NCBI GenBank assembly: GCA_049841175.1
Contig: JASGHA010000004.1
Span: 38,077-102,076 of the forward strand
Source of the DNA: Rubrivivax sp.
GTDB taxonomy: Bacteria; Pseudomonadota; Gammaproteobacteria; Burkholderiales; Burkholderiaceae_C
Length of the DNA stretch: 64,000 nt
Direction: 5' to 3'
Shown one piece after another: positions 3,766-59,592 of the stretch. A model generated the notes under the pieces. The model did not search any database, was not told the origin of the DNA, and worked only from the letters and a program-made list of their open reading frames with translations. The translations under genes were made by a program, and so were the position numbers. Numbering within the stretch: position 1 is the stretch's first letter; the number at the start of each line of letters is the position of its first letter.

Positions 3766-3813
3766 GCGCCGTTTCAACGGCCTGAACGAGTTCGCCCCGG
3801 CCCGCGAAGGCTT

Positions 3814-3891
3814 CTGCCGCGCAAGCGCTTCTCGATGGGCGAGGCCGACGAGAAGCGCTTCTATCTCGAAGCGCGCCGCATCCTGCCGTAG
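3814..3891 (+). repeat. 78-bp direct repeat, copy 2 (orphan duplicate of the DUF1015 3' end)
   Basis: 74 of 78 bases identical to 896-973, including the stop codon. Confidence 0.95.
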
Positions 3892-3894
3892 CGC

Positions 3895-31837: not shown

Positions 31838-32749
31838 ATGCTGAGCCTTCACACCAACGCCGCGTCTCTGTCCACGCAGAACTCCGTCGGCAACACGCAG
31901 CGTTCGCTGTCCTCGTCGATGTCCAAGCTGGGCACCGGCTATCGCATCAACTCGGCGATGGACGACGCCGCCGGCCTGCAGATCGCCACCCGCCTGGACG
32001 CCCAGACGCGCGGCATGGCCGTCGCCCAGAAGAACACCCAGAACGGCATCTCGATGATGCAGACCGCCGAAGGCGCGTTCGCCGAGACGACCAGCATCCT
32101 GCTGCGCATGAAGGACCTGGCGACCGAAGCCGCCAACGGCTCGTCGACCGCCGACGACAAGACCGCGATGCAGTCGGAATACGACGCGCTGGGCCGCGAA
32201 CTGACCAACATCGTCAAGAACACCTCGTTCGGCGGCCAGAAGCTGTTCGGCGTCGGCACCAACGCCGCGGCCGTCACCGGCGGCACGAGCACGCTGGGCA
32301 AGGGCACCGGCGTCACGTTCCAGATCGGCGCCAGCGCCGCTGAAACGATGACCGTCAACGTCTCCGACGCCCTCAGCAAGCTGACCGCCGACGACGGCAG
32401 CCTGGGTCTGGCCAGCGCCTCCTTCGTCACGACCGCCGACGCGACGACGGTCGGCACCGAGCTGACGGCCTCCGCCAACGCGACCATCACGAAGCTGGAC
32501 ACGGCGCTGGCCGACGTCGGCACGGTGCGCTCGGCGCTGGGCGCGGCGTCCAACCGCCTCGACCACGTCTACGACAACCTGTCGAACATGAGCACCAACA
32601 CGCAGGCCGCCAAGAGCCGCATCATGGACGTCGACTACGCCAGCGAGACCGCCAACATGACCTCGCATCAGCTGCTGCTGCAGGCCGGCACCTCGATGCT
32701 CAAGCAGAGCAGCAGCATGTCGCAGCTCGCCCTGTCGCTGCTGAACTGA
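31838..32749 (+). CDS. lafA: Flagellin, lateral (LafA-like)
   Basis: MLSLHTN, GYRINSAMDDAAGLQIA, SALGAASNRL, SRIMDVDYASETA; short variable region. Confidence 0.92.
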   Translation: MLSLHTNAASLSTQNSVGNTQRSLSSSMSKLGTGYRINSAMDDAAGLQIATRLDAQTRGMAVAQKNTQNGISMMQTAEGAFAETTSILLRMKDLATEAANGSSTADDKTAMQSEYDALGRELTNIVKNTSFGGQKLFGVGTNAAAVTGGTSTLGKGTGVTFQIGASAAETMTVNVSDALSKLTADDGSLGLASASFVTTADATTVGTELTASANATITKLDTALADVGTVRSALGAASNRLDHVYDNLSNMSTNTQAAKSRIMDVDYASETANMTSHQLLLQAGTSMLKQSSSMSQLALSLLN

Positions 32750-34800: not shown

Positions 34801-35995
34801 GTGCTCAAGGAGATCGCGGTCGCCGACCTGCGGGTCGGCATGTTCGTGCACAAGATCTGCGGCTCGTGGATCGACCACCCGTTCTGGCGCACGCGCTTCG
34901 CGCTGCGCGAGGCGCAGGACGTGGACAAGCTGCGCGCCAGCGGCGTCGAGCGCCTGATCATCGACCTGGAACGCGGTGTCGACGTGCTGCCGGCGCTGGT
35001 GCCGGTCGACGAGCCGCTGCCCGACGCGACCCCCGAGCCGGCGCCGCCGCCGGAGCCGCCGCGTGTCGGCCGCGACTACGTGCAGGCCGCGGCGCTGTGC
35101 CGGCGCAGCCTGGCGCCGCTGCGTTCGCTGCACGACAGCGTGCGCCTGGGCCGCGCCGTCGCCACCGAGGCCTGCCGAGCACCTGGTCGACGAGATCGTC
35201 GACTCGGTCGAGTACGAGCCGACGCTGCTCGTCGCCGTCGCCCGGCTGAAGGCCGCCGACGAGTACCTGTACCTGCACGCGCTGGCGGTGTCGGCGCTGA
35301 TGGTCGCGCTGGGCCGCCAGATGGGGCTGCAGACACCTCAGCTGCGCGAAGCCGCGCTCGCCGGGCTGCTGCTGGACATCGGCAAGGCGCGGCTGCCGTC
35401 GGAGCTGCTGACGCGCCCGGCGCGGCTGCAAGGCGACGAACTGGCGCTGATGCGCCGCCACGCCGAGATCGGCCACGCGCTGCTGTCGCGCCTGGACGGC
35501 GTGCCGCGCAGCGTGCTGGACGCCGTGCGCCACCACCACGAGCGCCTGGACGGCAGCGGCTACCCCGACAAGTTGCGCGCCGAGGCCATTCCCGCTTTCG
35601 CGCGCATGGCCGCGGTCTGCGACGCCTACGACGCCGTGACCTCGCGCCGGCCCTATCGCGCGCCCTGGGACCCGGGGCTGGCGATGCGCCACCTGGCGCA
35701 GTCGCCGCGCGAGTTCGACGCCGTCATCGTGCAGCACTTCGTCAAGGCGGTCGGCATCTATCCGACCGGCACGCTGCTGCGGCTGAAGTCCGAGCGCCTG
35801 GCGGTCGTCGTCGGCCGCGGGGCGTCGCTGCTGACGCCGCGTGTGCGGGTCTTCTATTCGATCGACGAACGCCATGCGATCGAGCCCTTCGATCTCGACC
35901 TGTCCGACCCGCGCTGCGAGGACGCCGTCGCCGGCATCGAGCCGCCGGAGGCCTGGCGCTTCCCGGGGCTGGAGCAGCTCTGGCTGCGTGGGTGA
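34801..35995 (+). pseudogene. DUF3391/HD-GYP c-di-GMP phosphodiesterase with one apparent +1 frameshift near 35175
   Basis: VLKEIAVADLRVGMFV...WIDHPFW, then a shifted frame with HHERLDGSGYP and VCDAYDAVTSRRPY. The first HD dyad reads LLDIGK rather than LHDIGK. Confidence 0.75.
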
Positions 35996-36482: not shown

Positions 36483-37973
36483 GTGGACTTTCTGCAGCTA
36501 GAAGAGAAACTAGCCAGCTATGGGTCTGGCGGATACTACTTAATCGAGTCCTTCCTGATAAAGCTTTTACAAGCGGAGGCAAAGTTCAGGAAGCAGGACT
36601 TCGTACACAGTTCAGGCAGCAACATCGCCACCTTCGATGCATTTGCGCCCATCGGCTTCGGCGACATCCCTGGTTCAGTATCAATTGAAATTGTTAGAAC
36701 TTTAAGTCCAAACAGGGTTATTAAAGAAGCGAGTCGCTACGCAAGTGTGGCGAAGGAGGCTAATGCAACGCTTCTAATAATATCCCTCACGAAGTTCAGC
36801 GAAGGCATACTTCCATTCATTGCGAAACATTTTCCAGTGGCCGCGAAGGTTCATCTTTGGGGCCCAAGTGAGATCCAACTCCTAATTGATCGCCATACAG
36901 AAACGGCAGAAAAGCTGGCGGAAAACCTATTTTCCAATCGCTTTAAAGTTGCACTGGAAAGCAATGCTGATGACTGGCAAAAGCAACGAGAAGGCGTTGT
37001 AAACGCCGTTCGAGATCAATACAGATCTGGTCGTTTTTCAATGTTTCTTGGCGCTGGCGTATCGAGTAGCGCTGGATTGCCAGATTGGGACACGCTCCTA
37101 AATTCCTTATTTGTGTCAATGCTCACTGATGGAGCGCCAAATGCGAAGCTTGCCGACGCCGAGCAAATCTCCAGCATTGTCAAACGGCTTAGGCAGATTG
37201 ATGGGCCGTCGGCTTTAATGTTGGCAAGATACATTCGCAAAGGAATTACAACCGACTCCCCCGCCGAGCAGGGAAAATTCATTGGTGCAGTGACAACCCA
37301 GCTTTATGGGCTCCGCAATAAAAAGCACTCAATAAGCTCAAGTCTAATCAAATCAATTGCAAGCCTTTGCGCTCCAAGCCGCACAGGTGCCAAAGTTCGT
37401 TCGGTGCTGACCTACAACTTTGATGATTTGCTTGAGCGAGAGATAAAAGCGCGAGGGCTATCTTATCGAAGCATATTTGAAGAGCTCGACCTGCCTTCGC
37501 CGGAAGAGTTGCCAATATATCATGTTCACGGCTTCCTACCAGAAGATCGATCAGCGTATGAGAACATAAACAAGGCAACACTGGTCTTCTCTGAAGAGGG
37601 GTATCACCATATTTACCGTGAAGCCTACCACTGGTCGAATTTGATTCAACTTAATAGCCTCAAAGAAACGTCATGCCTAATGGTCGGATTGTCTTTAACC
37701 GACCCAAACTTGCGCAGACTTCTAGAAATATCTGCAAAATCAATTGACAAGCCTAAGCACTTCGCTTTCATGAAGCGAATTACATATGATAGCTTTTCCA
37801 CTGAGGGGGAAAAATCCGTCGTGCGCGCCCCAGTTGGAATAGTAAGACGCTTCCTAGATAGGCACCATAAGCTTAATGAGGAGGTTCTTAGAGAGTTGGG
37901 TGTCAACATAATTTGGTACGAAAATTATGATGAAATTCCATCCATTCTCCATCAAATTGGGAAAGGTGTCTAA
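36483..37973 (+). CDS. SIR2-family protein with an N-terminal restriction-endonuclease-like domain (cassette 1)
   Basis: FLGAGVSSSAGLPDW, LTYNFDDLLE, IYHVHG, LVFSEEGY, LMVGLSLTDPNLRRLL; the stop codon overlaps the attC R'' box. Confidence 0.85.
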   Translation: MDFLQLEEKLASYGSGGYYLIESFLIKLLQAEAKFRKQDFVHSSGSNIATFDAFAPIGFGDIPGSVSIEIVRTLSPNRVIKEASRYASVAKEANATLLIISLTKFSEGILPFIAKHFPVAAKVHLWGPSEIQLLIDRHTETAEKLAENLFSNRFKVALESNADDWQKQREGVVNAVRDQYRSGRFSMFLGAGVSSSAGLPDWDTLLNSLFVSMLTDGAPNAKLADAEQISSIVKRLRQIDGPSALMLARYIRKGITTDSPAEQGKFIGAVTTQLYGLRNKKHSISSSLIKSIASLCAPSRTGAKVRSVLTYNFDDLLEREIKARGLSYRSIFEELDLPSPEELPIYHVHGFLPEDRSAYENINKATLVFSEEGYHHIYREAYHWSNLIQLNSLKETSCLMVGLSLTDPNLRRLLEISAKSIDKPKHFAFMKRITYDSFSTEGEKSVVRAPVGIVRRFLDRHHKLNEEVLRELGVNIIWYENYDEIPSILHQIGKGV

Positions 37974-38084
37974 CTGACGGTTCAACGCGGACGCCAAAAC
38001 GGGCCATCGCTTCGCGATTTTGCTGGCCCGTTTTGGTGCTCTACGCGCCTCGCGCTCCGGCGTCGGTTAACCTGGGCGTTATGC
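37968..38084 (+). other. attC site 1
   Basis: R'' GTCTAAC (37968), L'' GGTTCAAC, central inverted repeat CCAAAACGGGCCA/TGGCCCGTTTTGG, L' GGTTAACC, R' GTTATGC (38078). Confidence 0.9.
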
Positions 38085-38103
38085 GCATCGCATAAGGAAG
38101 AAC

Positions 38104-38772
38104 ATGATCGAAGATGATGATTTCGAACTGAATCGGATCATGGATGAGCTTGAGGAAGGCTCCAAGGAAATTAATGAGATTAATTCGGAATTGGAGAATT
38201 ATTTCGAATGGCTTGAGGTGCTCACTGGCCTGAATAAAATTTCAAAAAAATTTGTATCGAACATGGATTCGCTATCATCCATCCATGGATCAATTTCAGA
38301 TACCATTGACAATAGCTTTCTAATAGGAACGCTATGGTCGGGAGTTATATCTTCTTACGAAGGATTTGTGCATGACCTTTTTGATTTATTGCTTTCAAAT
38401 AGAATTCATGCGCAAGCGGCCGTAGAAGGAGCCCCAAGCCTAGATAAGGGGCTTTTGGATCAAATAAAGCTAAATAAAAACAAATATATATCCGCTGAAG
38501 ACCTCCGGTTCTTGTTCAGGAAAGCTACGCTGAGCAACCCTAACAAAGGTGCTGCACTGGCAAACCATCTATTCAAAACAAATATTCCAGAGATCGAAGA
38601 CAAAGAAATGCTAAGTGCTTTGAAAATAAGGAATGCCTACACGCACAATAATGGTGGAGTCGAAGTTTCCCTGTCATCTTTAGAGCTATTTCACGACAAA
38701 ATCGACACCGCGGTTGGTGGTTATATTAAAGAAATCTTAAATCAGGCAAATAGCCGCATATCCAAAGATTGA
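38104..38772 (+). CDS. HEPN-domain putative RNase (cassette 2)
   Basis: VISSYEGFVHDL plus an Rx4H motif RNAYTH(NNG); acidic N-terminus. Confidence 0.7.
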   Translation: MIEDDDFELNRIMDELEEGSKEINEINSELENYFEWLEVLTGLNKISKKFVSNMDSLSSIHGSISDTIDNSFLIGTLWSGVISSYEGFVHDLFDLLLSNRIHAQAAVEGAPSLDKGLLDQIKLNKNKYISAEDLRFLFRKATLSNPNKGAALANHLFKTNIPEIEDKEMLSALKIRNAYTHNNGGVEVSLSSLELFHDKIDTAVGGYIKEILNQANSRISKD

Positions 38773-38777
38773 GAGGG

Positions 38778-38864
38778 GCATAACATGGCGCTCAGCCGCG
38801 CTCCCTTCGGTCGCTGGACGCTGCGCGATAAAGCCGGGCAGCGCCGGTTAGATCTACATTAGGC
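38778..38864 (+). other. attC site 2 (R' crossover base altered)
   Basis: R'' GCATAAC is the exact complement of the cassette-start GTTATGC; ...GCTGCGCGATAAAGCCGGGCAGCGCCGGTTAGATCTAC; R' reads ATTAGGC instead of GTTAGGC. Confidence 0.88.
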
Positions 38865-38880
38865 CTCGCTATCAGTCTCC

Positions 38881-39681
38881 GTGGCTCACCATCCGCTCGT
38901 GCGCATACACCCGAACCGATGCAAGCAAGCCAAAGCGCTTCCTGCAACGCCGCGAACTTGGGCGGAACGTCATGCTCCCCTCGCCCAGGTTATCGCGGCG
39001 TACAGCACTCTTGCAGCGGTGGTTGTCGCAGGGCTCGGCTTTTGGTTCACGGTCATACCCCTTTACCAGAAGGCCGCGGTTGACGAGCAACTTGCGAAAC
39101 GTGAAGCTGAACTCAAGCAGTTGGATTCAGAACTCGCACGCGCAAGACGGGAGGCATACGAACTAGTGCGGTCCGGTCTGCTGGAACAGACTGCGATTCG
39201 TGCGTCGTTCGACTGCGCAGGTTTCTTTAGGGACGGTGGGGCAACGGCCATAGATCGCCTGTCTGAACCATTGGCGTCGTGCATTTTGAAGGCCAGCGGA
39301 TCCATCGTTGAAGCAAAGCGATTGACCGAGGGGGACAGCCAAACGCTCATGCGGGAGAGCGAGCGGTTCGTAGCGGAGTGGGAGCAACGACGCCTTGCGA
39401 CACTCGAGAAGGTCAAGGAGATTCCCAGTCGGGCATCCATCGATTCGACAATCCTTGCCGAGGAGGGGCCCCACTCCAAGCGGGTGACAGACTACTTGAC
39501 GAAGATCGAGCCCTATCTGAGCGAAGCGGATCGGCAAAGGCAAAGGCAACGTCAGTTCGAGCGCCGAGTTCGTCAAACTCAGTACCAGATGGCGTTGAAC
39601 TTCGGCACTGAACTGAGCACAGCCATGCTGAAGTTCTATCGTGCAGGCATTTGGCCCGCGGTCAAGCTCACAGCGCAGTAG
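38881..39681 (+). CDS. Hypothetical membrane-anchored coiled-coil protein (cassette 3)
   Basis: Single TM (TLAAVVVAGLGFWFTVIPLY) followed by heptad-like QLAKREAELKQLDSELARARRE; start uncertain. Confidence 0.65.
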   Translation: MAHHPLVRIHPNRCKQAKALPATPRTWAERHAPLAQVIAAYSTLAAVVVAGLGFWFTVIPLYQKAAVDEQLAKREAELKQLDSELARARREAYELVRSGLLEQTAIRASFDCAGFFRDGGATAIDRLSEPLASCILKASGSIVEAKRLTEGDSQTLMRESERFVAEWEQRRLATLEKVKEIPSRASIDSTILAEEGPHSKRVTDYLTKIEPYLSEADRQRQRQRQFERRVRQTQYQMALNFGTELSTAMLKFYRAGIWPAVKLTAQ

Positions 39682-39743
39682 CTACTCGGCGCCCACAAGG
39701 TGCGGCGAGGCCTTGTATCTTCCAAGAGACCGCAGTGAGCAGT

Positions 39744-40016
39744 GGTATCGCTCCTCGTAGTAGACTTGGCCTTGATCGGTGTACTCCTGGCCCTCGCTCA
39801 GCAGGCTGTAGATCAGCCGGGCGAGTTTGTGTGCGGCGGCCGTGACGGCTTTGGCCTTGTCCATGCGGGCGCACAAACGCCGGTAGTACGCGCCCAGCGC
39901 CGACTGGCTGGTGCGCAGCGCCTTGGCGGCGCGGTTGACCGTGGGACGGGTCTTGCCGCTCATGACCTTGCCGCCGGTGATCTTGGTGCCCGGGCACAGG
40001 CCCATCCAGGATGCGA
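39744..40016 (-). pseudogene. IS110-family transposase C-terminal remnant
   Basis: ASWMGLCPGTKITGGKVMSGKT...SALGAYYRRL...KAVTAAAHKLARLIYSLL...GQEY...YYEERY; N-terminal DEDD domain absent. Confidence 0.85.
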
Positions 40017-40180
40017 CTTCCCCTTCCCAGCGTCGGATTGCTGACTTGCACCTTCAATCCTGACGTCTCGACGTCGTGCTGGGTTGTGGGAAGTCCCTTC
40101 GTATTCCCTCCACCGACCACCCGACGCCCGCGGCAGCCAACGACAGTTGTGTGCCAGCGGTGTGCTACCAAAGCCTCGGA

Positions 40181-40279
40181 GCCGGACGTCGGGGCGTGTC
40201 CCGGAGTGAAGTATTAGGAGGAGGGCGGGCGCAGCCCGCCCGGGGGACATGAACGCAGGGACACGCCCCGGCGGCCGGC
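40181..40279 (+). ncRNA. Stem-loop-hairpin-loop-stem RNA element, IS110 bridge/seek-RNA-like, copy R
   Basis: Outer stem 40181-40202/40258-40279; same two loops as copy L, with different but paired stems. Confidence 0.5.
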
Positions 40280-40408
40280 TCTTGCGCCGTTGCTAGCGGA
40301 CGTGATCCAACGAGTTCCTTTGTGGGCTTGAGAGGCGTGAGACGGCCGGAGTGCTTCAGCAGCGGCGAGCCACGGCCGCCGGGCGGCAGCAGACGCCGCA
40401 GGGTTTAA

Positions 40409-41594
40409 GGAAGGTCTGCACAACACGCCGAGCGACCGGATCGGCGCGACATCGTTAGCGACGGCTTTGTGCAGGAGCGCATTGCGCCCCCGAGCCAGCG
40501 TTGTAGGACGGAGAAACGAAGCAAATGGCGCCCAGCGGGGGACGTTTGGCGCCCACCGGGCGCACTCATCCCCGGGCTCCCATGAGATGCCTTCGCGCCA
40601 TCCACAGGTTCGCCAGCGCGAACAGCGTCTGGATCTGCGCCGTGTTCTTGGCCAGCCCCCGGTACCGCACCTTGGTGAAGCCGAACTGCCGCTTCAGCAC
40701 GCGAAACGGGTGCTCCACCTTGGCCCGCACGCTGGCCTTGAGTTGTTCGATTCGCTCGGTGATCGCATCCTGGCGATCCCGCGCGTCGAGCAGCCGCCGC
40801 AGCCCCGGGCGCAAGGCCACGTGCCAGGTCGGCCCTCGCGCCTCGGGCCTCTTGTGCACGCCCTGGTAGCCGGCGTCGCCGAAGGCGTTGCGTTCCTCGC
40901 CATGCAGCAGTTGTCCGGCCACGTTCAGGTCGTTGACGTTCGCCGGCGTGGCCACCACCGTGTGCACCAGCCCCGAGGCCGCGTCCACCCCGATGTGCGC
41001 CTTCATCCCGAAGTACCAGTTGTTGCCCTTGCGGGTCTGCTTCATCTCCGGATCGCGCTCGCCTTCGGCGTTCTTCGTCGAGCTGGGCGCCGCGATCAGC
41101 GTCGCGTCCACCACCGTGCCGGTGCGCAGCATCAGGCCCTTGTGCTGCAGCAGATCGGCCACCAGGCGCAGCATGTCGGCCGCCAGTTCGTGGCGCTCCA
41201 GCAGGTGGCGAAACCGCAGGATCGTCGTCTCGTCGGGCAACCTCTGCGTCGCACCATCGAGCCGAGCGAACTCCCGGTACAGCGGCACGTCGTGCAGCGC
41301 CTCTTCCATCGCCGGGTCGCTCAGCCCGAACCATTGCTGCAGGTAGTGGATGCGCAGCATCGTCTCCAGCGCAAACGGCGGCCGCCCGGTCCTGGCTCGC
41401 GGATAGTGCGGCTGCACGATCTCCACCAGCGCCGCCCACGGCACCACGCGGTCCATCTCCTCGAGGAACTCGCGCTTGCGCGTCTTCTTCGTCGACAGGT
41501 TCAGGCCAAGTCCGAGCTGCTTCATGTCGGGCATCCTCGCCTGCCTACCTCGCACGGGCAAGCCGGCTTCGCGGGGGCGTTTTGCAGACCTTCC
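40409..41594 (-). mobile_element. IS5-family insertion sequence (IS5 subgroup), apparently intact
   Basis: Terminal inverted repeats GGAAGGTCTGCA(C/A)AA; TTAA target duplication at 40405-40408 and 41595-41598; 1186 bp. Confidence 0.95.
40566..41525 (-). CDS. IS5-family DDE transposase
   Basis: KTRKREFLEEM, LSDPAMEEAL, VDATLIAAPSS, YFGMKAHIGVD, GDAGYQG, RAKVEHPF. Confidence 0.95.
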   Translation of the reverse strand: MKQLGLGLNLSTKKTRKREFLEEMDRVVPWAALVEIVQPHYPRARTGRPPFALETMLRIHYLQQWFGLSDPAMEEALHDVPLYREFARLDGATQRLPDETTILRFRHLLERHELAADMLRLVADLLQHKGLMLRTGTVVDATLIAAPSSTKNAEGERDPEMKQTRKGNNWYFGMKAHIGVDAASGLVHTVVATPANVNDLNVAGQLLHGEERNAFGDAGYQGVHKRPEARGPTWHVALRPGLRRLLDARDRQDAITERIEQLKASVRAKVEHPFRVLKRQFGFTKVRYRGLAKNTAQIQTLFALANLWMARRHLMGARG

Positions 41595-47958: not shown

Positions 47959-48789
47959 TCAGTCGGAGTCGGTGAAACAGGTGAGGCACAGCCGGCCGTC
48001 GTGCTCGGCGACGCGGGCCTTGAACAGGCGCAGGCCGTCGACGAGGGCGTCGGCCTCGCCGAGCGTGATCGGAAGCACGTCGCCGACCTTCAGCGCGGCG
48101 ACGTCGGACAGCGGCAGCTGCTTCTCGAGCAGCTGGGCGACGAGGCGGAACTCCAGCCGCGTGGCCAGCGGCGCGACGGTGGCCTGGGCGCTGGAGGGCA
48201 GGCGCTCGGTGGCGAGCTGGGTCCACAGCCGCTCCAGCCACGACGGCGCCAGCGCGACACGCAGGCGCGCCGGCTCGCTCATGCCGGCCTCGGCGATCGT
48301 CGCGTCCAGCACCCAGGTGCCGCGTGCCGGTGCCGCCGCCGGCGTGCCGGACGACGGTGCCGCGACGGTGCCCGGCTCGGCGGCCAGGCCGGCGTCGAGC
48401 CGGCGCGCCGCCAGCGCCGCCCAGGCGGCGCCCAGCTGCCCGGCCAGGCGCTCCTCGGTCGTGGTGGCCGTCGTGTCCTCGGCCTGCGCCTCGGTGCCGA
48501 AGCGCCGCGCCATCAGCGCCAGCAGCAGCCGGCGGTCGGCACCGCAGACCAGGGTGCCGCGTGCGAACGCGTAGGCGTGCCAGCCGCTGCCTTCGGCTTC
48601 CTGGTCCAGGCGCGCGAGCGAGGCGTCGACGACCTCGAAGCCGGCGCGGTGGCGCTGGTTGACCTGACGCCGCAGCCAGCCGGCCAGGTCGGCGCGCCAG
48701 CGCCGCGCGAACGCGTCGAGCAGGTGCACCGGGCGCCCGAGCGAGGTCGGGTCGATCGGCCGGCAGGGGGACGAACGGGATGCGGTCAT
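47959..48789 (-). CDS. fliM: Lateral-type FliM/FliN-domain switch protein
   Basis: IDPTSLGRPVHLL; C-terminal SpoA domain LKVGDVLPI...FKARVAEHDGRLC; positioned before fliN. Confidence 0.8.
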   Translation of the reverse strand: MTASRSSPCRPIDPTSLGRPVHLLDAFARRWRADLAGWLRRQVNQRHRAGFEVVDASLARLDQEAEGSGWHAYAFARGTLVCGADRRLLLALMARRFGTEAQAEDTTATTTEERLAGQLGAAWAALAARRLDAGLAAEPGTVAAPSSGTPAAAPARGTWVLDATIAEAGMSEPARLRVALAPSWLERLWTQLATERLPSSAQATVAPLATRLEFRLVAQLLEKQLPLSDVAALKVGDVLPITLGEADALVDGLRLFKARVAEHDGRLCLTCFTDSD

Positions 48790-49146
48790 GGCATTCAATG
48801 AGGCGTCGAGCGACGAATTCTAGAAATCGATCGGCATTTCGTTAGCGCAATTAAGTGGAATATGCAGCGCTTTCTTTCCGATCGATCATTTGGCGTGGCC
48901 TGCATCATGCAAACCATGCCGGGTCGGATGGCGGGCGTTTTTTCAGGGAAACATCCGACTCACAATAAATGAAAAACGCGCCCCAAGATGGCAATTATGA
49001 ACCTATCATTTTTGCTATCTGGTGTCATTCGGGGCGATATCCAAATCTGTCATGCCGTTAAAGAAGAGAACTAGTTCACGTGTCCGAAGCTCTCCGCGGG
49101 TTACGGCCTGCAACAGCCCGGAAGCCGCGCTTAGCATGCGTCGCAT

Positions 49147-49233
49147 CAGGGCACACCCGAGCGAAAGCCGGGGTCGCAAAGCTTCCGGTCTAACCGTCCC
49201 CCCGAGCGGGACGCACGACAGCGGGGCCGCCGG
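49147..49233 (+). ncRNA. c-di-GMP-I (GEMM) riboswitch
   Basis: GGCACACC-cgagc-GAAA-gccg-GGGTCGCAAAGCTTCCGGTCTAA...ACAGCGGGGCCGCC matches the GEMM consensus (GNRA tetraloop, receptor and P1 pairing). Confidence 0.85.
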
Positions 49234-49593
49234 GCGAAGCCGCCTCGTGCACCTCGGACACACGGGGTGCGTCGGCATCGTCTGTCCATGGCGCGACGCG
49301 CCGCGGAGACCCTTTGCGTTCGCGCGGGTCGAGCCCTGCAACGAGCTCCGCACCGATGCCACGAACGCCACTTCCACCGACCGTCAACTGCACCGCCCCG
49401 AGCGCGGTGCCGCCGGTTCGCGGGTCGCCGACGTCAGCGCTGCGGGCCTCCGCCAGATGGGTCTCGGATTCGAATTCGATGTTCGGCATGCGTTTTCAGT
49501 GTTTTCGCTGACGGCTAATGCCGTGGTTATTCGCGGGCTCCGGAATCACGCTCGGACGACAAGCTCCGGTGTCACGAAAAATTAATGCGTCGT

Positions 49594-49625
49594 CACCGTC
49601 AAGTGCTTTGACGGTGGACCGATAA
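49594..49625 (+). promoter_or_regulatory. Sigma28-like promoter with an overlapping perfect palindrome, upstream of fliE
   Basis: TCAA-N15-ACCGATAA (49599-49625); CACCGTCAA-N5-TTGACGGTG (49594-49616). Confidence 0.55.
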
Positions 49626-49731
49626 ACGCTCATCCCCGTGTTCTTGGCGTAATGGGCCGACAGCAGGCCCGGGCCGCCGCATGGTCTGAAGTTCCTGGTC
49701 GCCGCGAATGCGGCCGTTTCCTGGAGGTTTG

Positions 49732-50067
49732 ATGTCGCAAATGTTGATGTCGGTCCTGGCGCAAGCCGTGCGCATGGCGGGCGAGGGCATGCGCCTGGGC
49801 GCCGGCGCCGCGGCCGAGCCGCTGCCGGCCGCCGGAGAGCACGGCGCCACCGGCTTCGCTTCGAGCCTGGTCGACGCCGTGCGCGGCGTCGACGCCCAGG
49901 CCCAGGCGGCCGACGCGCAGCTCGCCGCGGTCGACTCCGGGCAGTCCAGCGATCTCGTCGGCGCGATGCTCGCCAGCCAGCAGGCCGACCTGTCGTTCTC
50001 GATGCTGCTGCAGGTGCGCAACAAGGTCGCCGGCGCGGTCGACGAGCTGATCAAGCTGCAGCTCTGA
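49732..50067 (+). CDS. fliE: Flagellar hook-basal body protein FliE
   Basis: GGAGG RBS; AMLASQQADLSFSMLLQVRNKV. Confidence 0.93.
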   Translation: MSQMLMSVLAQAVRMAGEGMRLGAGAAAEPLPAAGEHGATGFASSLVDAVRGVDAQAQAADAQLAAVDSGQSSDLVGAMLASQQADLSFSMLLQVRNKVAGAVDELIKLQL

Positions 50068-50077
50068 GGACGACGCC

Positions 50078-51745
50078 GTGGCCAACCCGCTCGTCTCCAC
50101 CCTGCGTCCCGCGTTCGCCCGGCTGCGTGCCGGCGGCCTGCCGGCGCTGCCGCCCGGGCTGCTGCGCGGCCTGACGCCGCTGCTGCTGGCCGCCGCCGCT
50201 GTGACGGCGCTGGTCGTCGCCTTCCAGTGGCGCGACCAGTCCAGCTACAAGCCGCTGTTCGGCGCCCGCGAGAAGGTCGCCGCCGCGGACATGATGGCCG
50301 TGCTCGACGCCGAGCACGTGCACTACCGCGTGCATCCCGACAGCGGCCAGGTGCTGGTGCCCGAGGCCGAGCTCGGCCGCGTGCGCATGCTGCTGGCCGC
50401 CAAGGGCGTCACCGCGCGCCTGCCCGCCGGCCTGGAGCTGATGGACCGCGACGACCCGCTGGGCGTCAGCCAGTTCGTGCAGGACGTGCGTTTTCGCCGC
50501 GGCCTCGAAGGCGAGCTGGCGCAGAGCATCATGACGATGGACGCCGTCGACTCGGCGCGGGTGCACCTCGCGATCGCGCGCAGCTCGTCCTTCGTCACCG
50601 CCGCCGACGACCGCAGCTCGGCCTCGGTCGTCGTCACGACCAAGCCCGGGCGCACGCTGAACCCCGAGCAGATCGCCGCGACGATCAAGCTCGTCGCCGG
50701 CAGCGTCGCCAACCTCGACGCCTCGCGCGTCAGCGTCGTCGACCAGGCCGGCAACCTGCTGTCGGCGCGTGTCGACCTCGAAGACGGCCTCGAAGGCCTG
50801 GCCTCCGGCGGCCTGGACGCGCGCCACCGCTACGAGCAGGACACGCGCCGCGGCGTCGACGACCTGCTGGGCCCGGTGCTGGGCGCCGGCAACTACCGCG
50901 TCAGCGTCACCGCCGAGGTCGACAACGACCGCGTGCAGGAGACGCGTGAGGTCTACGGCGCCGACCCCAAGGTCACCAGCGAAGCGCTGCGTCAGGAGAT
51001 GAACCGCGAAGGTCTGGCCGTCGGCGTGCCCGGCTCGCTGAGCAACCGCCCGGTGGCGGTGGCGGCCGCGGCCTCGGGCGCCGACCCCTCGGGCCAGGCG
51101 CAGCGCAACGCCAGCACGCGCCAGTACGCCTACGACCGCAACATCACGCAGATCAAGCGCAGCCGCGGCCGCCTCGAACGCCTGAACGTCGCCGTCGTGC
51201 TGGCCGCCAGCGCCGCGCCCGGCGGTGCCGCGGCCTGGACGCCGCAGCAGCTGGCCGACATCGAGCGCACGCTGGCCAGCGGCCTGGGCATCAACAAGGA
51301 ACGTGGCGACCGCCTCGCCGTCTCGGCGATGCCGTTCCCGGCGCCGCCGGCGCCGACGCCCTGGTACGGCGAACGCAACCTCTGGGTCGACGTCGGCGGC
51401 TGGCTGCTCTACGCGGCCGGCGGGCTGATGCTGTTCTTCGGCGTCGTGCGCCCCGGCATGCGCATGCTGCAGCAGCGTGCCAGTGCGGCGCCGACGCCGC
51501 TGGTGCCGCTGGGTGCCGGCCCCGAGGGCGCTGCCGCCGCGGCGCTGGCGGGGCCGGGGGGCGCGGCTGCCGCGCTGCCCGGGCGTTCGCCGGTGGCGCC
51601 GCTGCTCGCCAACTACGACCTGCCGCCGCCGGGATCCGCCGTCGACGTGCTGGTCGACCACCTGAAGGTGCTCGCCTCCAAGGAGCCCGAGCGCGTCGCC
51701 GAGGTCGTCAAACAGTGGGTGCAGAAGCATGACCGAGCCGAGTAA
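50078..51745 (+). CDS. fliF: Flagellar MS-ring protein FliF
   Basis: GLELMD...SQFVQDVRFRRGLEGELAQSI, ARVHLAI, GVPGSLSN. Confidence 0.96.
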   Translation: MANPLVSTLRPAFARLRAGGLPALPPGLLRGLTPLLLAAAAVTALVVAFQWRDQSSYKPLFGAREKVAAADMMAVLDAEHVHYRVHPDSGQVLVPEAELGRVRMLLAAKGVTARLPAGLELMDRDDPLGVSQFVQDVRFRRGLEGELAQSIMTMDAVDSARVHLAIARSSSFVTAADDRSSASVVVTTKPGRTLNPEQIAATIKLVAGSVANLDASRVSVVDQAGNLLSARVDLEDGLEGLASGGLDARHRYEQDTRRGVDDLLGPVLGAGNYRVSVTAEVDNDRVQETREVYGADPKVTSEALRQEMNREGLAVGVPGSLSNRPVAVAAAASGADPSGQAQRNASTRQYAYDRNITQIKRSRGRLERLNVAVVLAASAAPGGAAAWTPQQLADIERTLASGLGINKERGDRLAVSAMPFPAPPAPTPWYGERNLWVDVGGWLLYAAGGLMLFFGVVRPGMRMLQQRASAAPTPLVPLGAGPEGAAAAALAGPGGAAAALPGRSPVAPLLANYDLPPPGSAVDVLVDHLKVLASKEPERVAEVVKQWVQKHDRAE

Positions 51746-52757: not shown

Positions 52758-53462
52758 GCAAGAGCCGGCCCTACCGCTTCCCGCCGCTGGCCGGGCTGAC
52801 CGCCGGCACGACGCTGCCGGCCGTCGCCGGGGCCGACGCCCAGGCCGCCGCCGCACGCGGCTACGCCGAGGGCCAGCAGCGTGGCTGGCGCGAGGGCTAC
52901 GACGCCGGCGCCGCCCAGGGCCGCGAAGACGGCTGGGCCACCGGGCTGGCGCAGGCGCGCGAGCACGCCGAAGCCGAGCTGCTGCGCCGCCTGCAGCTCA
53001 AGCTCGCCGAGACCGCACGGCCGCTGGAAGCTGCGCTGGCGGCGCTGGAGAGCGCCCAGGCCGAGGCCCAGGCGGCGATGCGCCGTGAACTCGTCGACCT
53101 GGTCGGCCGCGTCGCGCGCCAGGTCGTGCGCTGCGAACTCGCGCTGCAGCCGCAGCAGATCCTCAAGCTCGTCGACGAGACGCTGGCGACGATGCCGCCG
53201 CCGCACGACGGTGTCGAGGTGCGGCTGAACCCCGAAGACCTGCGCCGCATCGAGGACGTCGACGCCGAGGCCGCACGCGCGCTGGCAGCTGCTCGCCGAC
53301 CCGCGCCTGGCGCCGGGCGAATGCCGCGTGCGCAGCGGCCGGCGCGAAGCCGACGCCGGCTGCCGCCAGCGCCTGGACGCGGTGATGGAGCAGGTCGGCG
53401 CCCAGCTGATCGAAGCGCCCGCCGACGCCGAGGCCTCGGCCGTCGAGGAGGCCGGCGCATGA
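52754..53462 (+). pseudogene. fliH: FliH with an apparent +1 frameshift near 53280
   Basis: GxxxG repeats and RLNPEDL, then WQLLADPRLAPGECRV in the shifted frame. Confidence 0.8.
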
Positions 53463-54773
53463 TCGGTCGCGCGCTGCAGAGCGTTCGCCTGGCCGAGGTG
53501 CCGGTCGCCACGCCGACCGGGCGCCTGGTCGGCGCCAGCGGGCTGCTGCTGGAAAGCGTCGGCTGCGCGCTGCGCACCGGCCACCGCTGCAGCATCGAGA
53601 CCGTCGGCGGCGAGTGGATCGACGCCCAGGTCGTCGGTTTCCGCGACGAGGTCAGCTACCTGATGCCGTTCCGGCCCGCGACCGGGCTGGCCACCGGCGC
53701 CCGCGTGCTGCCCGGTGCCGAGGACACGACGCAGCTGATCGGCCCGTCAGTGGCTGGGCCGCATCGTCGACGGCCTCGGCGAGCCGGTCGACGGCCGTGG
53801 CCGGCTCGGCGGCGAGCACGTGCTGCCGGCGCATCCGCCGCGCATCAACCCGCTCAAGCGCCGCCCGGTCGACGCGCCGCTGGACGTCGGCGTGCGTGCG
53901 ATCAACGGCGTGCTGACGCTGGGCAAGGGCCAGCGTGTCGGCCTGATGGCCGGCTCGGGCGTCGGCAAGAGCGTGCTGCTCGGGCTGATCACGCGCCAGA
54001 CGGTGGCCGACGTCGTCGTCGTCGGGCTGATCGGCGAACGCGGCCGCGAGGTGCGCGAGTTCATCGACCTGTCGCTCGGCGAAGCCGGGCTGCGCGCGCG
54101 CGGTGGTCGTCGTCGCGCCGGCCGACGAGTCGCCGCTGATGCGGCTGCGCGCCACCGAGCTGTGCCACACGATCGCCGCGCACTTCCGCGACCAGGGCCA
54201 GGACGTGCTGCTGCTCGTCGACTCGCTGACGCGCTACGCGATGGCGCGGCGCGAGGTCGCGCTGGCGCTCGGCGAGCCGCCTGCCACACGCGGCTACCCG
54301 CCGTCGGTCTTCAGCCGCCTGCCGCAGCTCGTCGAGAGCGCCGGCAACGGCGAGAACCCGGCCGGCAGCATGAGCGCCATCTACACCGTGCTCGCCGAAG
54401 GCGACGACCAGCAGGACCCGGTCGTCGACACCGCGCGCGCCATCCTCGACGGCCACATCGTGCTGTCGCGCGAGCTGGCCGAACGCGGCCACTACCCGGC
54501 GATCGACATCGCCCAGTCGATCAGCCGCTGCATGGCGCTGGTCACGAGCCACGGCCACCAGGCCGCGGCGCGCCAGCTCAAGGAGCATGGCCGCTCGCCA
54601 CGCCCAGGTGCGCGACCTGCTGCCGCTGGGCGCCTACGTGCCCGGCGCCGACCCGGCGACCGACCGCGCGGTGCAGGCCTACCCGCGCGATCGAGGCCTT
54701 TCTGCAGCAAGGCACGCGCGAAGCCGCGCCGCTGGCCGACAGCGTGCAACGTCTGGAGGAACTGACCCGATGA
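53459..54773 (+). pseudogene. fliI: Flagellar ATPase FliI with four apparent +1 frameshifts
   Basis: Walker [27 protein letters not shown] and GHYPAIDI are spread over successive frames; shifts near 53750, 54097, 54586 and 54689. Confidence 0.85.
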
Positions 54774-55206
54774 ACCGTGCCCAGGCTTCGCTGCAGGCCG
54801 TGCGCCGGCTGGCCGAGCTGCGCGCTCGCGACGCCGAGCGGCTGCAGACCGAACTCGCCGAACGCCAGGCGCAGCGCCGGCGCCAGGCCGAGGCCGTCGA
54901 ACGGCTGAACGCGCTGTGCGTCGGCGTCGGCGCCAGCGCCGTGCCGGCGGCCGTGCTGGCGGCCAACTGCGCCGCCTACAAGGAGTCGCTGCTCGAACTC
55001 GGCCGCCGCCAGCAGGACGTGCTGGCCCGCCACGACGCCGACGTCGACGCCGCGCGCCTGGCGCTGATCGCCGCCTCGACGCGCCGCATGGCGCTGGAGC
55101 AGGCCGTCGACGGCCGCCAGCAGCGCCTGGACCGCGACGCCGCCGGCCGCGAGCAGAAGCGCCGGACGACATCGCCACCCAGGTGTGGCTGCGGGGCCAG
55201 CGATGA
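54770..55206 (+). pseudogene. fliJ: FliJ with an apparent -1 frameshift near 55163
   Basis: Coiled coil after fliI; the C-terminal DDIATQVW lies in a shifted frame. Confidence 0.75.
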
Positions 55207-55284
55207 GCACGCGGCTTCAGCAATCGTGCGCGGCGGTCGCCTTGCGCTCTGGAGAAGGGGCCTGACGCCCCGGGAGCCACGACC

Positions 55285-56644
55285 ATGAGCAGCCTCGTTC
55301 GACCCCGCCTCGACCGCCACCCAGCTGGCGACCGCGTACACGCAGAACGCCTACAAGCTGCTGTCCACGCAGAGCACGGCGGCGCAGACCACGTCCACCG
55401 CGCTGACCAAGCTGCGCACCGCGCTGACGACCTTCGAGTCGGCGCTGTCCTCGCTGTCCTCGTCCAAGGGCGTGAAGACGCTGGCGGCGAGCTTCGACAA
55501 CACCGCCTACGCCAGCGCGACGGCGACGAGCAAGGCCGCCACCGGCGCCTACTCGTTCTTCGTCGAGCAGGTCGCCACCAAGCACCAGACGAGTTTCGCC
55601 GCGCTGCCCGACGTCACCGCTGCCGGCGCCGGCACGCTGTCGCTGTCGGTCGGCGGCAGCAGCTTCGGTGTCGCGCTGAGCGGCGCCGACAGCGACGGCG
55701 ACGGCAAGGTCTCGGCCAGCGAGATCGCGCGGGCGATCAACGCCAGCAGCGACAACGCCGGCCGTGTCGTCGCCAGCGTGATGAGCGTCAACGGCCAGAA
55801 CCGCCTCGTGCTGACGGCCGCCGAGACCGGCGCCGCCGGCGCGATGACGCTGGACGCCTCCGGCGTCACCGACACGGGGCTGGCCAGCGCGCTGTCGACC
55901 GAGAAGCTGCTGGTGCAGGGCCGCGACGCCGTGCTCTGGCTCGGCGAGCAGGGCAGCGGCGTGAAGATCGAGCAGGCCAGCAACAGCTTCACCGGCATCA
56001 CCGGCGTCACCGTCAACCTGACCAAGGCGATGGCCGCCGGCGACAAGCCGGTGACGCTGAACGTGGCCGACGACGTCTCGGCCACGGCCGACAACGTCAA
56101 GAGCTTCATCAGTGCCTACAACGCGCTGGAGAGCGTGCTCGACGGCATGACGGCCAACGCCACCAGCAGCGGCACCGCCGCCGGCCCGTTCGCCAGCGAT
56201 TCCGGCGTGCTGGCGCTGAAGAGCCGCCTGGGCAACCTGCTGCGCCAGTCCGTCGGCGGCGTGCGCCTGGCCGACTTCGGCGTCTCGATCGGCCGCGACG
56301 GCCAGATGTCGCTGGACCAGAGCAAGCTCGAAACCGGACTGAAGGCCAAGCCCGAGGGCCTGGCGACGCTGTTCGGCAGCGCGCGCACCGGCGCGACCAG
56401 CGGCGTGCTCGGCAGCCTCGCCGAGCTGGCGCGCAGCTGGAAGTCCGCCGACGGCCAGATCGCCAGCCGCATGGCCTCGGTCGACCGGACGCAAAAGAGC
56501 ATCACCAAGCGCCAGGAGGCGCTCGATCAGCGCTACGAGAGCCTGTACCAGATCTACCTGAAGCAGTTCACCAAGCTGCAGGACCTGCAGAACTCGATGA
56601 GCAACACCAGCAGCCTGTTCGGCAGCCTGGCCACCACCAGTTGA
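55285..56644 (+). pseudogene. fliD: Flagellar filament cap FliD with an apparent +1 frameshift in the first codons
   Basis: ATG AGC AGC c TCG TTC GAC CCC..., then continuous: FVEQVATKHQ, SNSFTGITGVTVNL, YLKQFTKLQ. Confidence 0.85.
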
Positions 56645-58424: not shown

Positions 58425-58873
58425 AGAAGTCTCTCGTCATCGCGCTGGCCGCGGCCGGCACCGTGCTGGTCGCCGCCGCCGGCGGCGCCTGGTGGTGGCA
58501 CTCGCGCCAGACCCCGGCCGCGGCCGACGGCAGCGCCGCCCCGGCCCCGCGCCACGACGTCGAGTACCGCTACGTCACGCTGGACAAGACCATCGTGATG
58601 CTGCGCCCCGACAACGGCGGCAACCACTACCTCGCGCTGGACCTCGTGTTCAAGACGCCGGTGAAGAAGGAGCGCGAGACCAAGGACCACCTGCCGCTGC
58701 TGCGCACCATCGTCGTCAAGGCGATGTCGGCGCACACGATGGAGAGCGCCGACAAGCTCGGCATCGAGGACTTCACGCGCGAGATCAACGAGGCCTTCCG
58801 CAAGAGCTACGCCGCCGAGCAGGCCGAGCCGCCGTTCGACGAGGCGCTGATCGCCAAGCTGATCATCGAATGA
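58421..58873 (+). CDS. fliL: Flagellar basal body-associated FliL (LafF-like)
   Basis: N-terminal TM helix, HYLALDLVF, ALIAKLIIE. Confidence 0.82.
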   Translation: MKKSLVIALAAAGTVLVAAAGGAWWWHSRQTPAAADGSAAPAPRHDVEYRYVTLDKTIVMLRPDNGGNHYLALDLVFKTPVKKERETKDHLPLLRTIVVKAMSAHTMESADKLGIEDFTREINEAFRKSYAAEQAEPPFDEALIAKLIIE

Positions 58874-59592
58874 GCGCGCTGCCCCAACTCCGCTACGACG
58901 CGTACGGCGAGCCGCCCGCGGCCGCCGGCGCGCTCGACGAGCAGCGCCTGCTGCTCGCGCACGCGGCCATCGTCAAGCGCGTGGTGCGCCAGTTGCACGC
59001 CCAGGTCGGCGGCGTGATGGGCCGCGAGGACATGGAGCAGGTCGGCCTGATGGGCCTGCTGGAGGCGCTGCGCCGCTACGGCCCGCCCGACGAGCGTTTC
59101 CCGGCTTTCGCCGCGGCGCGCGTGCGCGGCGCCGTGCTCGACGAGCTGCGCCGCCAGGACTGGCGCCCGCGCAGCGTGCGCCAGGAGAGCCACCGCGTGC
59201 GCGACGGCGTGCGCGAGCTGCGCCGCCGCCTCGGCCGCGAGCCCAGCGACAGCGAGGTCGCCGCGGCGCTGGGCATGACGCTGCAGGCGCTGCAGGAGGC
59301 GCAGCGCGCCGAGAACGCCGAGGAGCTGGCGAGCTTCGACGAACTCGTCGCCGAGATGGCCGAGATCCCGTCGGACCAGCGCTCGCCCGAGGACGCCTAC
59401 GTCGCGCGGCGCAGCCTGGAGCAGGCGCTGCGCAGCCTGGACGAGCGCGAGCAGCGTGTCGTGCAGCTCTATTACGAGTTCGACCTCGGCCTGCGCGAGA
59501 TCGCCGCGGTGCTCGGCCTGACCGAGGCGCGCGTCTGCCAGATCAACAAGGGGGCGTTGCGGAAGATGAAGGTCTTCCTGCAGGGCGCCTGA
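58870..59592 (+). CDS. fliA: Flagellar sigma factor (FliA/LafS)
   Basis: EDMEQVGLMGLLEA, RVRGAVLDELRRQDWRPRSVR, LTEARVCQI. Confidence 0.92.
   Translation: MSALPQLRYDAYGEPPAAAGALDEQRLLLAHAAIVKRVVRQLHAQVGGVMGREDMEQVGLMGLLEALRRYGPPDERFPAFAAARVRGAVLDELRRQDWRPRSVRQESHRVRDGVRELRRRLGREPSDSEVAAALGMTLQALQEAQRAENAEELASFDELVAEMAEIPSDQRSPEDAYVARRSLEQALRSLDEREQRVVQLYYEFDLGLREIAAVLGLTEARVCQINKGALRKMKVFLQGA

Follow-up and report, generated by a model that had tools for sequence, protein, structure and literature searches.

Several described systems resemble the locus analysed here. The Cd1 riboswitch, which precedes the flgB operon of Clostridioides difficile, has reportedly been studied as an OFF switch in a leader of ~500 nt, and an intrinsic terminator is said to lie just behind its aptamer. 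Vc2 of Vibrio cholerae is said to combine a GAAA loop on P1 with an AAA linker, a CUAA bulge in P2 and a G, an A and a C as ligand contacts. Riboswitches may also act through Rho, as exemplified by the Mg2+ leader of mgtA in Salmonella and the flavin mononucleotide (FMN) riboswitch of ribB in Escherichia coli. Here, we analysed a putative riboswitch for c-di-GMP (bis-(3'-5')-cyclic dimeric guanosine monophosphate) that lies between the divergent flagellar genes fliM and fliE in a 64,000-nt stretch of Rubrivivax sp. DNA (assembly GCA_049841175.1, contig JASGHA010000004.1; hereafter the window). GEMM RNAs upstream of fliE, fliM, fliF and other flagellar genes were already listed in 2007 (Weinberg et al., Table 2, PMC1950547), with delta- and gamma-proteobacteria, Firmicutes and Planctomycetes named as main carriers, and the GEMM section of this paper makes no mention of beta-proteobacteria, of Laf-type clusters or of a 500-nt leader. 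With the flagellar examples tabulated there, fliE and fliM among them, the Rubrivivax RNA has in common the RNA family and a 5' regulatory location ahead of early flagellar genes. Because this link was tabulated in 2007, the present case is less novel than implied by an earlier note, which had been made from the letters of the window alone. In the library of papers searched, no link between c-di-GMP riboswitches and either lateral flagella or Rubrivivax was encountered.

In Flag-2 (lateral flagellar) clusters the genes follow the order lfhAB-lfiRQPNM-lafK-lfiEFGHIJ, with lafK placed between lfiM and lfiE (PMC6993521). The window shows the same order, that is flhAB-fliRQPNM and fliEFGHIJ separated by a slot; LafK is a sigma54-dependent protein activator, whereas the Rubrivivax slot is non-coding and occupied by a leader with a riboswitch, which presumably serves the same task of starting early gene expression. 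As with Cd1, a class I aptamer would stand at the 5' end of a ~500-nt early flagellar leader with further elements downstream; unlike there, no intrinsic terminator is found at the Rubrivivax locus, the leader holds a sigma28-type promoter, and phylum and flagellar hierarchy are different. All features of Vc2 listed above have counterparts in the Rubrivivax sequence, but a local outer helix is lacking, the complement of the 5' flank being located ~120 nt downstream at 49353–49360. With mgtA and ribB the locus shares a long leader without intrinsic terminator and a C-rich, G-poor and unstructured stretch behind the sensor, Rho being a working model in the present case.

A c-di-GMP-I aptamer between fliM and fliE

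The earlier note had placed a GEMM consensus at 49147–49233 on the plus strand and had proposed an Infernal search with the Rfam model. This search bears out the assignment: cmscan matched RF01051 (c-di-GMP-I) at 49140–49234 of the plus strand with 54.2 bits (E 8e-8) as compared to a gathering score of 35. The match spans the full model (positions 1–87), is the sole above-threshold Rfam match in the window, and was recovered identically when the whole genome was searched. Its surroundings are likewise as described in the note: the ATG of fliM, encoded on the minus strand, is located at 48789, and the next plus-strand gene after the aptamer is fliE with its ATG at 49731, leaving 496 nt between the end of the aptamer and the start codon (~500 nt had been given).

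According to the GEMM section of the 2007 paper, P1 consists of a 2-bp and a 6-bp stem separated by an internal loop of 3 nt and closed by a GNRA loop, and is joined by an AAA linker to P2 (PMC1950547). The Rubrivivax RNA agrees with this definition, as P1 reads GC-ACA-CCCG(A)GC-GAAA-GCCGGG-GUC-GC and is followed by AAA and P2. The receptor-like bulge of P2 carries the CUAA half of a candidate tetraloop receptor; the opposite half reads CACGA rather than resembling the UAUGG-like consensus, as it does throughout this clade, and the receptor 3' half is ACG instead of AUG in 14/14 aptamers from flagellar loci. Model positions 11, 38 and 83 correspond to G49150, A49178 and C49230, which we take to be the equivalents of ligand contacts G20, A47 and C92 in Vc2.

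Covariation was assessed on 14 aptamers from homologous flagellar loci. Their de novo fold by RNAalifold was GC-driven and wrong, and the canonical structure was therefore tested explicitly. In this case, 94.6% of the positions concerned were paired and 7 compensatory pairs were counted, values that none of 500 shuffles reached. At the level of sequence, 49140–49234 is thereby confirmed as a genuine c-di-GMP-I aptamer, far beyond chance.

Conservation of the aptamer at flagellar loci

To place the aptamer in a comparative context, 48 FliF-related loci (numbered with the prefix L below) were fetched and all scanned with Rfam, including a whole-genome check, and 222 species of the genus were searched at the DNA level. 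In 10 of the 48 loci an aptamer is present between fliM and fliE on the fliE strand, the carriers being R. gelatinosus DSM 1709 (L028), two Aquabacterium metagenome-assembled genomes (MAGs), a Rhizobacter MAG, Curvibacter soli, Paracidovorax anthurii, a Rhodocyclaceae MAG and three unclassified MAGs. The DNA search added two Rubrivivax species with an aptamer at the same position, and the arrangement is found in 13 loci in total, four Rubrivivax species included. The other GEMM-I matches in a scan of 40 relatives do not adjoin fliE or fliM homologues, and the link to fliE emerged from the FliF-based search only. In a FliF tree, the carriers occupy deep branches of several families and the 38 non-carriers fall into few derived clades (Oxalobacteraceae, Steroidobacteraceae, Acidovorax and Crenobacter); 4–5 changes suffice to explain the presence of the riboswitch, as compared to 10 expected by chance. 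This pattern is compatible with an old element that may have been lost several times, including losses in the Oxalobacteraceae, Steroidobacteraceae and Acidovorax clades.

Several carriers deviate from the Rubrivivax arrangement. The Rhodocyclaceae MAG (L031) possesses two near-identical aptamers back to back, one directed to fliM (2780–2867, minus strand) and one to fliE (3220–3307, plus strand), with scores of 77.2 and 76.4 bits. The aptamer of L029 (2933–3033) has A rather than G at the first ligand-contact position, a replacement at the G20 equivalent that we take to mark the GEMM-Ib riboswitches of Geobacter selective for 3',3'-cyclic GMP-AMP (3'3'-cGAMP); the MAG containing this locus is labelled Acidobacteriota, and the locus itself is nearest to that of Aquabacterium L036. 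In the Rhizobacter MAG (L030), the aptamer at 3222–3317 is best matched by RF03167 (c-di-GMP-I-GGC; 64 bits, gathering score 59) and not by RF01051.

When the four Rubrivivax species (FliM identity 75–95%) are compared, alignable sequence in the ~940-nt intergenic region is restricted to five blocks, one of which is the aptamer (Table 1). Retention of the aptamer at the same position in 13 loci argues strongly for control of the fliE operon in cis. The earlier note had proposed direct control of the basal-body operon by c-di-GMP at the RNA level; the conserved position speaks in favour of this idea, whereas an expression platform reaching fliE was not found in the window. When metagenomes were scanned with the invariant 22-mer for additional Rubrivivax-type platforms, two unrelated chance matches were obtained and nothing else.

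The only other c-di-GMP-I aptamer of the genome (contig C13, 425599–425685; L001 1501–1587; 78.4 bits) is located 18 nt upstream of an open reading frame (ORF) whose product combines a signal peptide with subtilisin-like motifs. In the 2007 paper, subtilases are one of the families associated with GEMM (PMC1950547).

Putative promoters, leader and probable direction of the switch

The coordinates of the elements discussed in the following are compiled in Table 1.

Table 1. Elements of the fliM–fliE region, in window coordinates.
Feature	Position	Strand	Basis
fliM, heading the divergent fliM-N-P-Q-R-flhB-flhA operon	47959–48789	-	Pfam FliMN_C
Upstream box, ~65 nt before the predicted start; candidate protein operator	49072–49088	+	Conservation; function putative
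Putative sigma70-type promoter TGCAAC-N17-TAGCAT, predicted start ~49144	49109–49137	+	Conservation
c-di-GMP-I (GEMM-I) aptamer, P1-GAAA/AAA/P2, G49150/A49178/C49230	49140–49234	+	RF01051, 54.2 bits; covariation on 14 aptamers
Post-aptamer domain, candidate expression platform	49235–49365	+	Alignable; role putative
C-rich, G-poor, weakly structured stretch; candidate Rho-loading (rut-like) site	49339–49400	+	Composition; role putative
Sigma28-type promoter-like element TCAAG-N14-ACCGATAA, 106 nt before the fliE ATG	49594–49625	+	Conservation
fliE, Shine-Dalgarno (SD) sequence GGAGG at 49723–49727	49731–50067	+	Pfam PF02049
Blocks aligned in four Rubrivivax species	49072–49088; 49109–49137; aptamer; ~130 nt to ~49365; 49575–49640		

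Upstream of the aptamer, both hexamers of the putative sigma70-type promoter are near-invariant in the four Rubrivivax species, one of which reads TAGGAT, and ~7 nt separate the end of the -10 hexamer from the aptamer. Similar elements (TTGCAA or TTGACA, a spacer of 17/18 nt, and TAGCAT, TACTAT or TAGAGT) end 5–9 nt before the aptamers of L029, L031, L033, L034, L036 and L065. A strict consensus promoter scanner made no call at 49109–49137. Since the conserved putative promoter ends directly before it, the aptamer most likely resides at the very 5' end of its own transcript. In Paracidovorax anthurii (L067, ~3180–3200), the sequence just before the aptamer is TGGCAAAGTGCCTGC, which follows a sigma54-type pattern (GG-N10-GC) and lacks sigma70-like hexamers. 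The box TAGTTCACGTG..CGAA farther upstream is invariant in the four Rubrivivax species and surrounded by intergenic DNA that cannot be aligned. Palindromic boxes of the type GTGnA-N4-TnCAC are also found at varying distances of ~45–75 nt upstream of the promoters of L029, L030, L034 and L036; they suggest that a protein regulator is involved as well.

Taken together, the reading that we favour, at a probability of roughly 0.6, is that the riboswitch is functional and controls, most likely negatively, the passage of transcription from its own promoter into the fliE array. The transcript would start at the sigma70-type promoter at ~49144 and extend through the 496-nt untranslated leader into the fliE array, and high c-di-GMP would most likely lower read-through into fliE, that is the element would operate as an OFF switch. 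In the absence of ligand, the segment 49305–49338 may pair with the 5' half of the aptamer, from which it would be released when the ligand locks the aptamer. In relatives, a freed segment of the CCUUUC type would pair with the SD sequence of fliE or of a non-conserved leader ORF, or would precede a U-run. For Rubrivivax, where no such partner is present, premature Rho-dependent termination at 49339–49400 is our best guess, and this attenuation step is put forward tentatively. At a later stage, the sigma28-type promoter at 49599–49625 could provide FliA-dependent expression independently of the riboswitch, whose own promoter would be the FliA-independent entry into a hierarchy without LafK and FlhDC.

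The leader offers candidate elements for such a mechanism. Between the aptamer and the sigma28 block, only the post-aptamer domain can be aligned in the four Rubrivivax species (74–88% identity). It comprises the invariant sequence CGGGCGAAGCCGCC, a covarying hairpin at ~49246–49270, a GGCGCGACGCGCC hairpin at 49290–49302, and at 49305–49338 the segment GGAGACCCUUUGCGUUCGCGCGGGUCGAGCCCUG, whose sequence complements the aptamer's 5' half. For this domain, RNAalifold and RNAfold propose alternative pairings, and in the unconstrained minimum free energy fold 49305–49338 displaces P1, the fold with the aptamer enforced being only 3.7 kcal/mol worse. In addition, CCGAUGCC at 49353–49360 is complementary to GCAUC..GG at 49143–49151. 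Distant relatives have an outer helix, CUCAG/CUGAG or UUCGAG/CUCGAA, after a 4-nt linker; in the window, no short outer helix can form after C49230, and the CCGAUGCC sequence is the sole complement of the 5' flank GCAUC. Competing pairings in the leader are thus far plausible, if weakly supported by these models. In the model, no other part of the leader is as unpaired as the following C-rich stretch; GC skews of -0.26 and -0.16 were calculated across 49300–49449, the C/G counts per 60 nt are 26/15 and 28/15, and stretches with an excess of C over G also occur in the leaders of L028, L031, L034, L065 and L067.

The direction of the switch is suggested mainly by the folding models of relatives. 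In L073, where the aptamer is only 173 nt away from the fliE ATG, enforcing the aptamer lowers the predicted accessibility of the fliE SD sequence from 0.61 to 0.36. In L029 and L034, the conserved SD sequence of a CUGGAAGG-N-AUG element is affected likewise (0.39 to 0.18 and 0.48 to 0.20, respectively), and a CCUUUC segment can form alternative pairs, with GAAAGG of P1 or with this SD sequence; the corresponding AUG, ~160 nt after the aptamer, heads non-conserved peptides. In L067, a short hairpin and U6 come directly behind an anti-aptamer segment. SD accessibility remained unchanged in L036, and L031 was excluded from this result as the folding constraint was not canonical. Hence, in the models, four of the six relatives examined (L073, L029, L034 and L067), in which an expression platform can be recognised, look OFF-like, in agreement with the general repression of flagellar motility and flagellar gene expression by c-di-GMP.

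Contigs from metatranscriptomes (numbered with the prefix X) cover the leader in part. One dataset contains a contig for 49251–49498 (X5), another overlapping pieces that span 49333–50600 and run through fliE into fliF (X6), and in a third one a 206-nt contig identical to the window (49163–49368) is the sole piece assembled between 48000 and 50600 (X25). The AT-rich spacer at 48783–49043 is uncovered in all three. This coverage agrees with a transcript beginning close to the aptamer and capable of extending to fliE. The 206-nt contig was also considered as a discrete short RNA, an idea that was rejected because the organism is sparsely sampled in this dataset; for the same reason its end at 49368 carries little weight.

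A further element is located between the aptamer and fliE. The sigma28-like promoter proper (49599–49625) is overlapped by a 9-bp inverted repeat at 49594–49616 that extends across the -35 sequence and the spacer. All four Rubrivivax species share the element, and in DSM 1709 both arms of the repeat have changed together (GGACTTCAGG/CCTGAAGTCC); this covariation suggests that the repeat may form a hairpin in the read-through RNA rather than serve as a protein site. The same layout is present in Rhizobacter L030 (3570–3604). As a feature of the whole cluster family the motif was rejected: [ACGT]C[CG]GAT[AT][AT] is absent from the ~900 nt before fliF (locus positions 3001–3900) in most of the 48 loci, and its occurrence ahead of fliE is confined to L030, L073 and the Rubrivivax loci. 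A comparable CCGATAA motif was not found before the flagellin gene.

A number of observations weigh against the gating of fliE by the riboswitch. With a promoter-like element between aptamer and fliE, the latter need not depend on the riboswitch transcript. No intrinsic terminator follows the aptamer, the only match in the region (48917–48933) being upstream and within chance expectation, and enforcing the aptamer fold has no predicted effect on the fliE SD sequence in the window, where Pfam, tblastx and codon composition also provide no conserved leader ORF. The duplex of 49305–49338 with the aptamer 5' half (-44.9 kcal/mol) beats shuffles modestly, with z = -2.4 in Rubrivivax and values from -3.4 to +0.3 at other loci. 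Since any GC-rich RNA pairs well, these scores tell little, and the predicted anti-aptamer pairing is suggestive only. The long-range GCAUC/GAUGC helix shows invariant pairs or G-C/G-U exchanges and no covariation in the four sequences. In a 600-nt model, the C-rich residues 49340–49360 are slightly less accessible when the aptamer is enforced (0.41 as compared to 0.56). The RNA contigs are unstranded, metatranscriptomic, derived from related strains and sparsely sampled, and in one run (X11) a contig spans the whole intergenic region, which may reflect DNA carry-over. Finally, fliH, fliI and fliD of this genome are frameshifted as assembled.

Four alternatives were weighed against negative gating of fliE. 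The first one, which we regard as unlikely, assumes an ON switch acting on the same operon: the ligand would promote read-through and c-di-GMP would turn on lateral-type flagella, e.g. for surface movement or attachment. It is at odds with the OFF-like folding of the four relatives and with the established inverse relation between c-di-GMP and flagellar gene expression, and the difference modelled for the window is small. Nonetheless, if Rho is the effector, the reduced accessibility of 49340–49360 in the aptamer-enforced fold would fit an ON switch, as it would mean less Rho loading in the presence of ligand. Moreover, many GEMM-I RNAs are predicted in the 2007 paper to be ON switches, with a terminator competing with P2 (PMC1950547).

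Rather improbable, and ranking next, is an uncoupling of the two in Rubrivivax, in which the transcript would end at ~49340–49600, fliE would be expressed from the sigma28-type promoter only, and the RNA would be a regulator acting in trans, a sponge or a leftover. Conservation indeed stops at ~49365 and the following ~200 nt cannot be aligned even between congeners, whereas the sigma28-like element 106 nt before fliE is conserved; the 206-nt contig as the sole piece between 48000 and 50600 would fit as well; other flagellar genes of the window yield a few contigs of similar depth. However, an operon for FliE to FliJ driven by sigma28 alone is logically problematic, because FlgM holds FliA until basal body and hook are complete, and their assembly requires FliE–FliJ. 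Furthermore, the aptamer stays next to fliE in 13 loci, at a distance of 173 nt from the ATG and with SD-complementary sequence in the case of L073, and the overlapping X6 contigs run from 49333 into fliF.

We consider it very improbable that the riboswitch controls a small protein encoded in the leader rather than fliE. ORFs of 65–99 codons do exist (49267–49518 and 49314–49511 on the plus strand; 49489–49190 on the minus strand), the codons of the minus-strand ORF are fairly gene-like, and L029, L031, L034 and L036 share CUGGAAGG-N4-7-AUG ~160 nt after the aptamer. However, Pfam searches with E up to 1 gave no match, tblastx similarity to relatives is limited to the aptamer and shows up in every frame, and the plus-strand ORFs have a G+C content at third codon positions (GC3) of 0.58–0.72 as compared to at least 0.92 in real genes. 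The peptides behind the conserved AUG of the relatives are unrelated, and the ORFs of the window are not kept in DSM 1709; the small leader ORFs on both strands were rejected on these grounds. Lastly, a chance match of GC-rich intergenic DNA to the covariance model, without RNA function, has the high G+C content of the match (0.73) and nothing else in its favour and can practically be dismissed in view of a score 19 bits above the curated threshold, positional conservation with compensatory changes, and zero matches of RF01051 in 14 control genomes.

The lafK slot and the flagellar cluster

The earlier note had seen no regulator of the FlhDC or LafK type, which holds true beyond the window: of 19 genome-wide matches to Sigma54_activat none is located on the 260-kb contig C4, and FlhC has no match in the genome. 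A decayed lafK gene within the leader was considered and rejected, since the leader ORFs have no family match here or in relatives. In related clusters devoid of the riboswitch (Massilia, Duganella and Steroidobacter), the slot measures only ~400–600 nt and is too short for a lafK gene. The further proposal that RNA control may stand in place of a protein regulator survives inasmuch as the lafK slot holds the riboswitch and LafK and FlhC are missing, but it was worded too strongly. The conserved palindromic box upstream, the sigma28-type promoter, and the presence of genes for FliA and FlgM in the cluster speak against the RNA as the sole regulator.

We consider a more far-reaching joint reading unlikely: in this family of Laf-like clusters without LafK and FlhDC, the hierarchy would have no FliA-independent entry other than the sigma70 promoter in front of the riboswitch, with an RNA sensor replacing the master regulator and with a split architecture and Rho-dependent attenuation in Rubrivivax. 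That is, the closing helix would be formed ~120 nt downstream around an inserted multi-hairpin domain, which would be an unusual architecture. As fliA is part of the same co-directional array, the sigma28 promoter behind the riboswitch would close a positive loop.

The gene order supports the description as a lateral-type flagellar cluster given in the earlier note. fliE heads a co-directional array, fliE-F-G-H-I-J-fliD-S-?-K-L-fliA-motA-motB-flgM-flgN and a glucosaminidase gene, that extends to 62942 according to Pfam, its intact ORFs being spaced by 26 nt at most; a small ORF lies between fliS and fliK, and the gene for the FliA-type sigma factor is at ~58873–59592. The overall order matches Laf/Flag-2, with flhAB-fliRQPNM divergent from fliEFGHIJ, followed by fliD-S-T-K-L-fliA-motA-motB, and with flgN-M-A divergent from flgB-L; flgA and flgB-L are found beyond the window on contig C4. 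The best NCBIfam models are LafA for the flagellin (318 bits, cut-off 365) and LafU for MotB (190 bits, cut-off 383), both ranking first at scores below the cut-off. The host is betaproteobacterial, as the note had assumed, and a Rubrivivax species (Sphaerotilaceae, Burkholderiales), with FliF being 92–93% identical to that of Rubrivivax gelatinosus DSM 1709 and FliM 88–95% identical in other Rubrivivax species. A second flagellar set with a different order (flhB-fliR-fliQ-fliE-flgC-flgB, fliP, fliM, flgF-G-A-H) is present on contig C8 (926174–941203). In the 99.85%-complete genome no second FHIPEP/flhA gene was detected, the only copy being that of the window; either set may therefore be the primary system, where the note had spoken of a secondary flagellum.

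The flagellin gene (31838–32749) is neighboured by genes for a TPR-GT41 glycosyltransferase and an HD-GYP-like protein. The latter (HD_5; 34976–35995) lies inside the flagellar cluster, and a dCache-HAMP-GGDEF gene (21079–22713) is located ~9 kb before the flagellin gene; both may supply or consume c-di-GMP locally. The stretch from the HD-GYP-like gene to flhA is interrupted by an insertion of lower G+C content (36483–41561), which comprises a gene with a SIR2_2 domain, a weak match to HEPN, a DDE transposase and two ORFs that have no family match.

Within the fliE array, the assembled region 53229–55310 is disrupted. Relative to R. gelatinosus DSM 1709, where fliH and fliI are intact, and to the equally intact FliI of Aquabacterium, the fliI gene is broken into five frame segments; fliH has a frame shift near 53230–53280, and the ATG of fliD (55285) does not share the reading frame of the remaining gene. 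Contigs of related strains (four DNA runs and one RNA run) are each one base shorter at ~53279, 53749, 54096, 54582/54586 and 54686/54689; these differences coincide with the frameshift points, and the extra bases are outside of long homopolymers. The frameshifts in fliH, fliI and fliD reflect either real decay of flagellar ATPase genes or local assembly errors.

Taken together, the locus is a solid, fairly ordinary further example of the known link between GEMM and flagellar genes, and it leaves the knowledge of the riboswitch class itself unchanged. What goes beyond routine is the combination of its position in the lafK slot, the lack of a known master regulator, a long leader without standard platform but with a sigma28 promoter inside, and orthologues that are wired differently. 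It provides a testable case of control of Burkholderiales flagella by a second messenger at the RNA level, on top of an array that includes fliA, flgM and the motor genes. With 13 loci having and 38 loci lacking the riboswitch, leaders of 173–638 nt, and one locus with a copy before each of the divergent operons, the set constitutes a natural series for how one aptamer is wired to different outputs, and it could show what replaces LafK.

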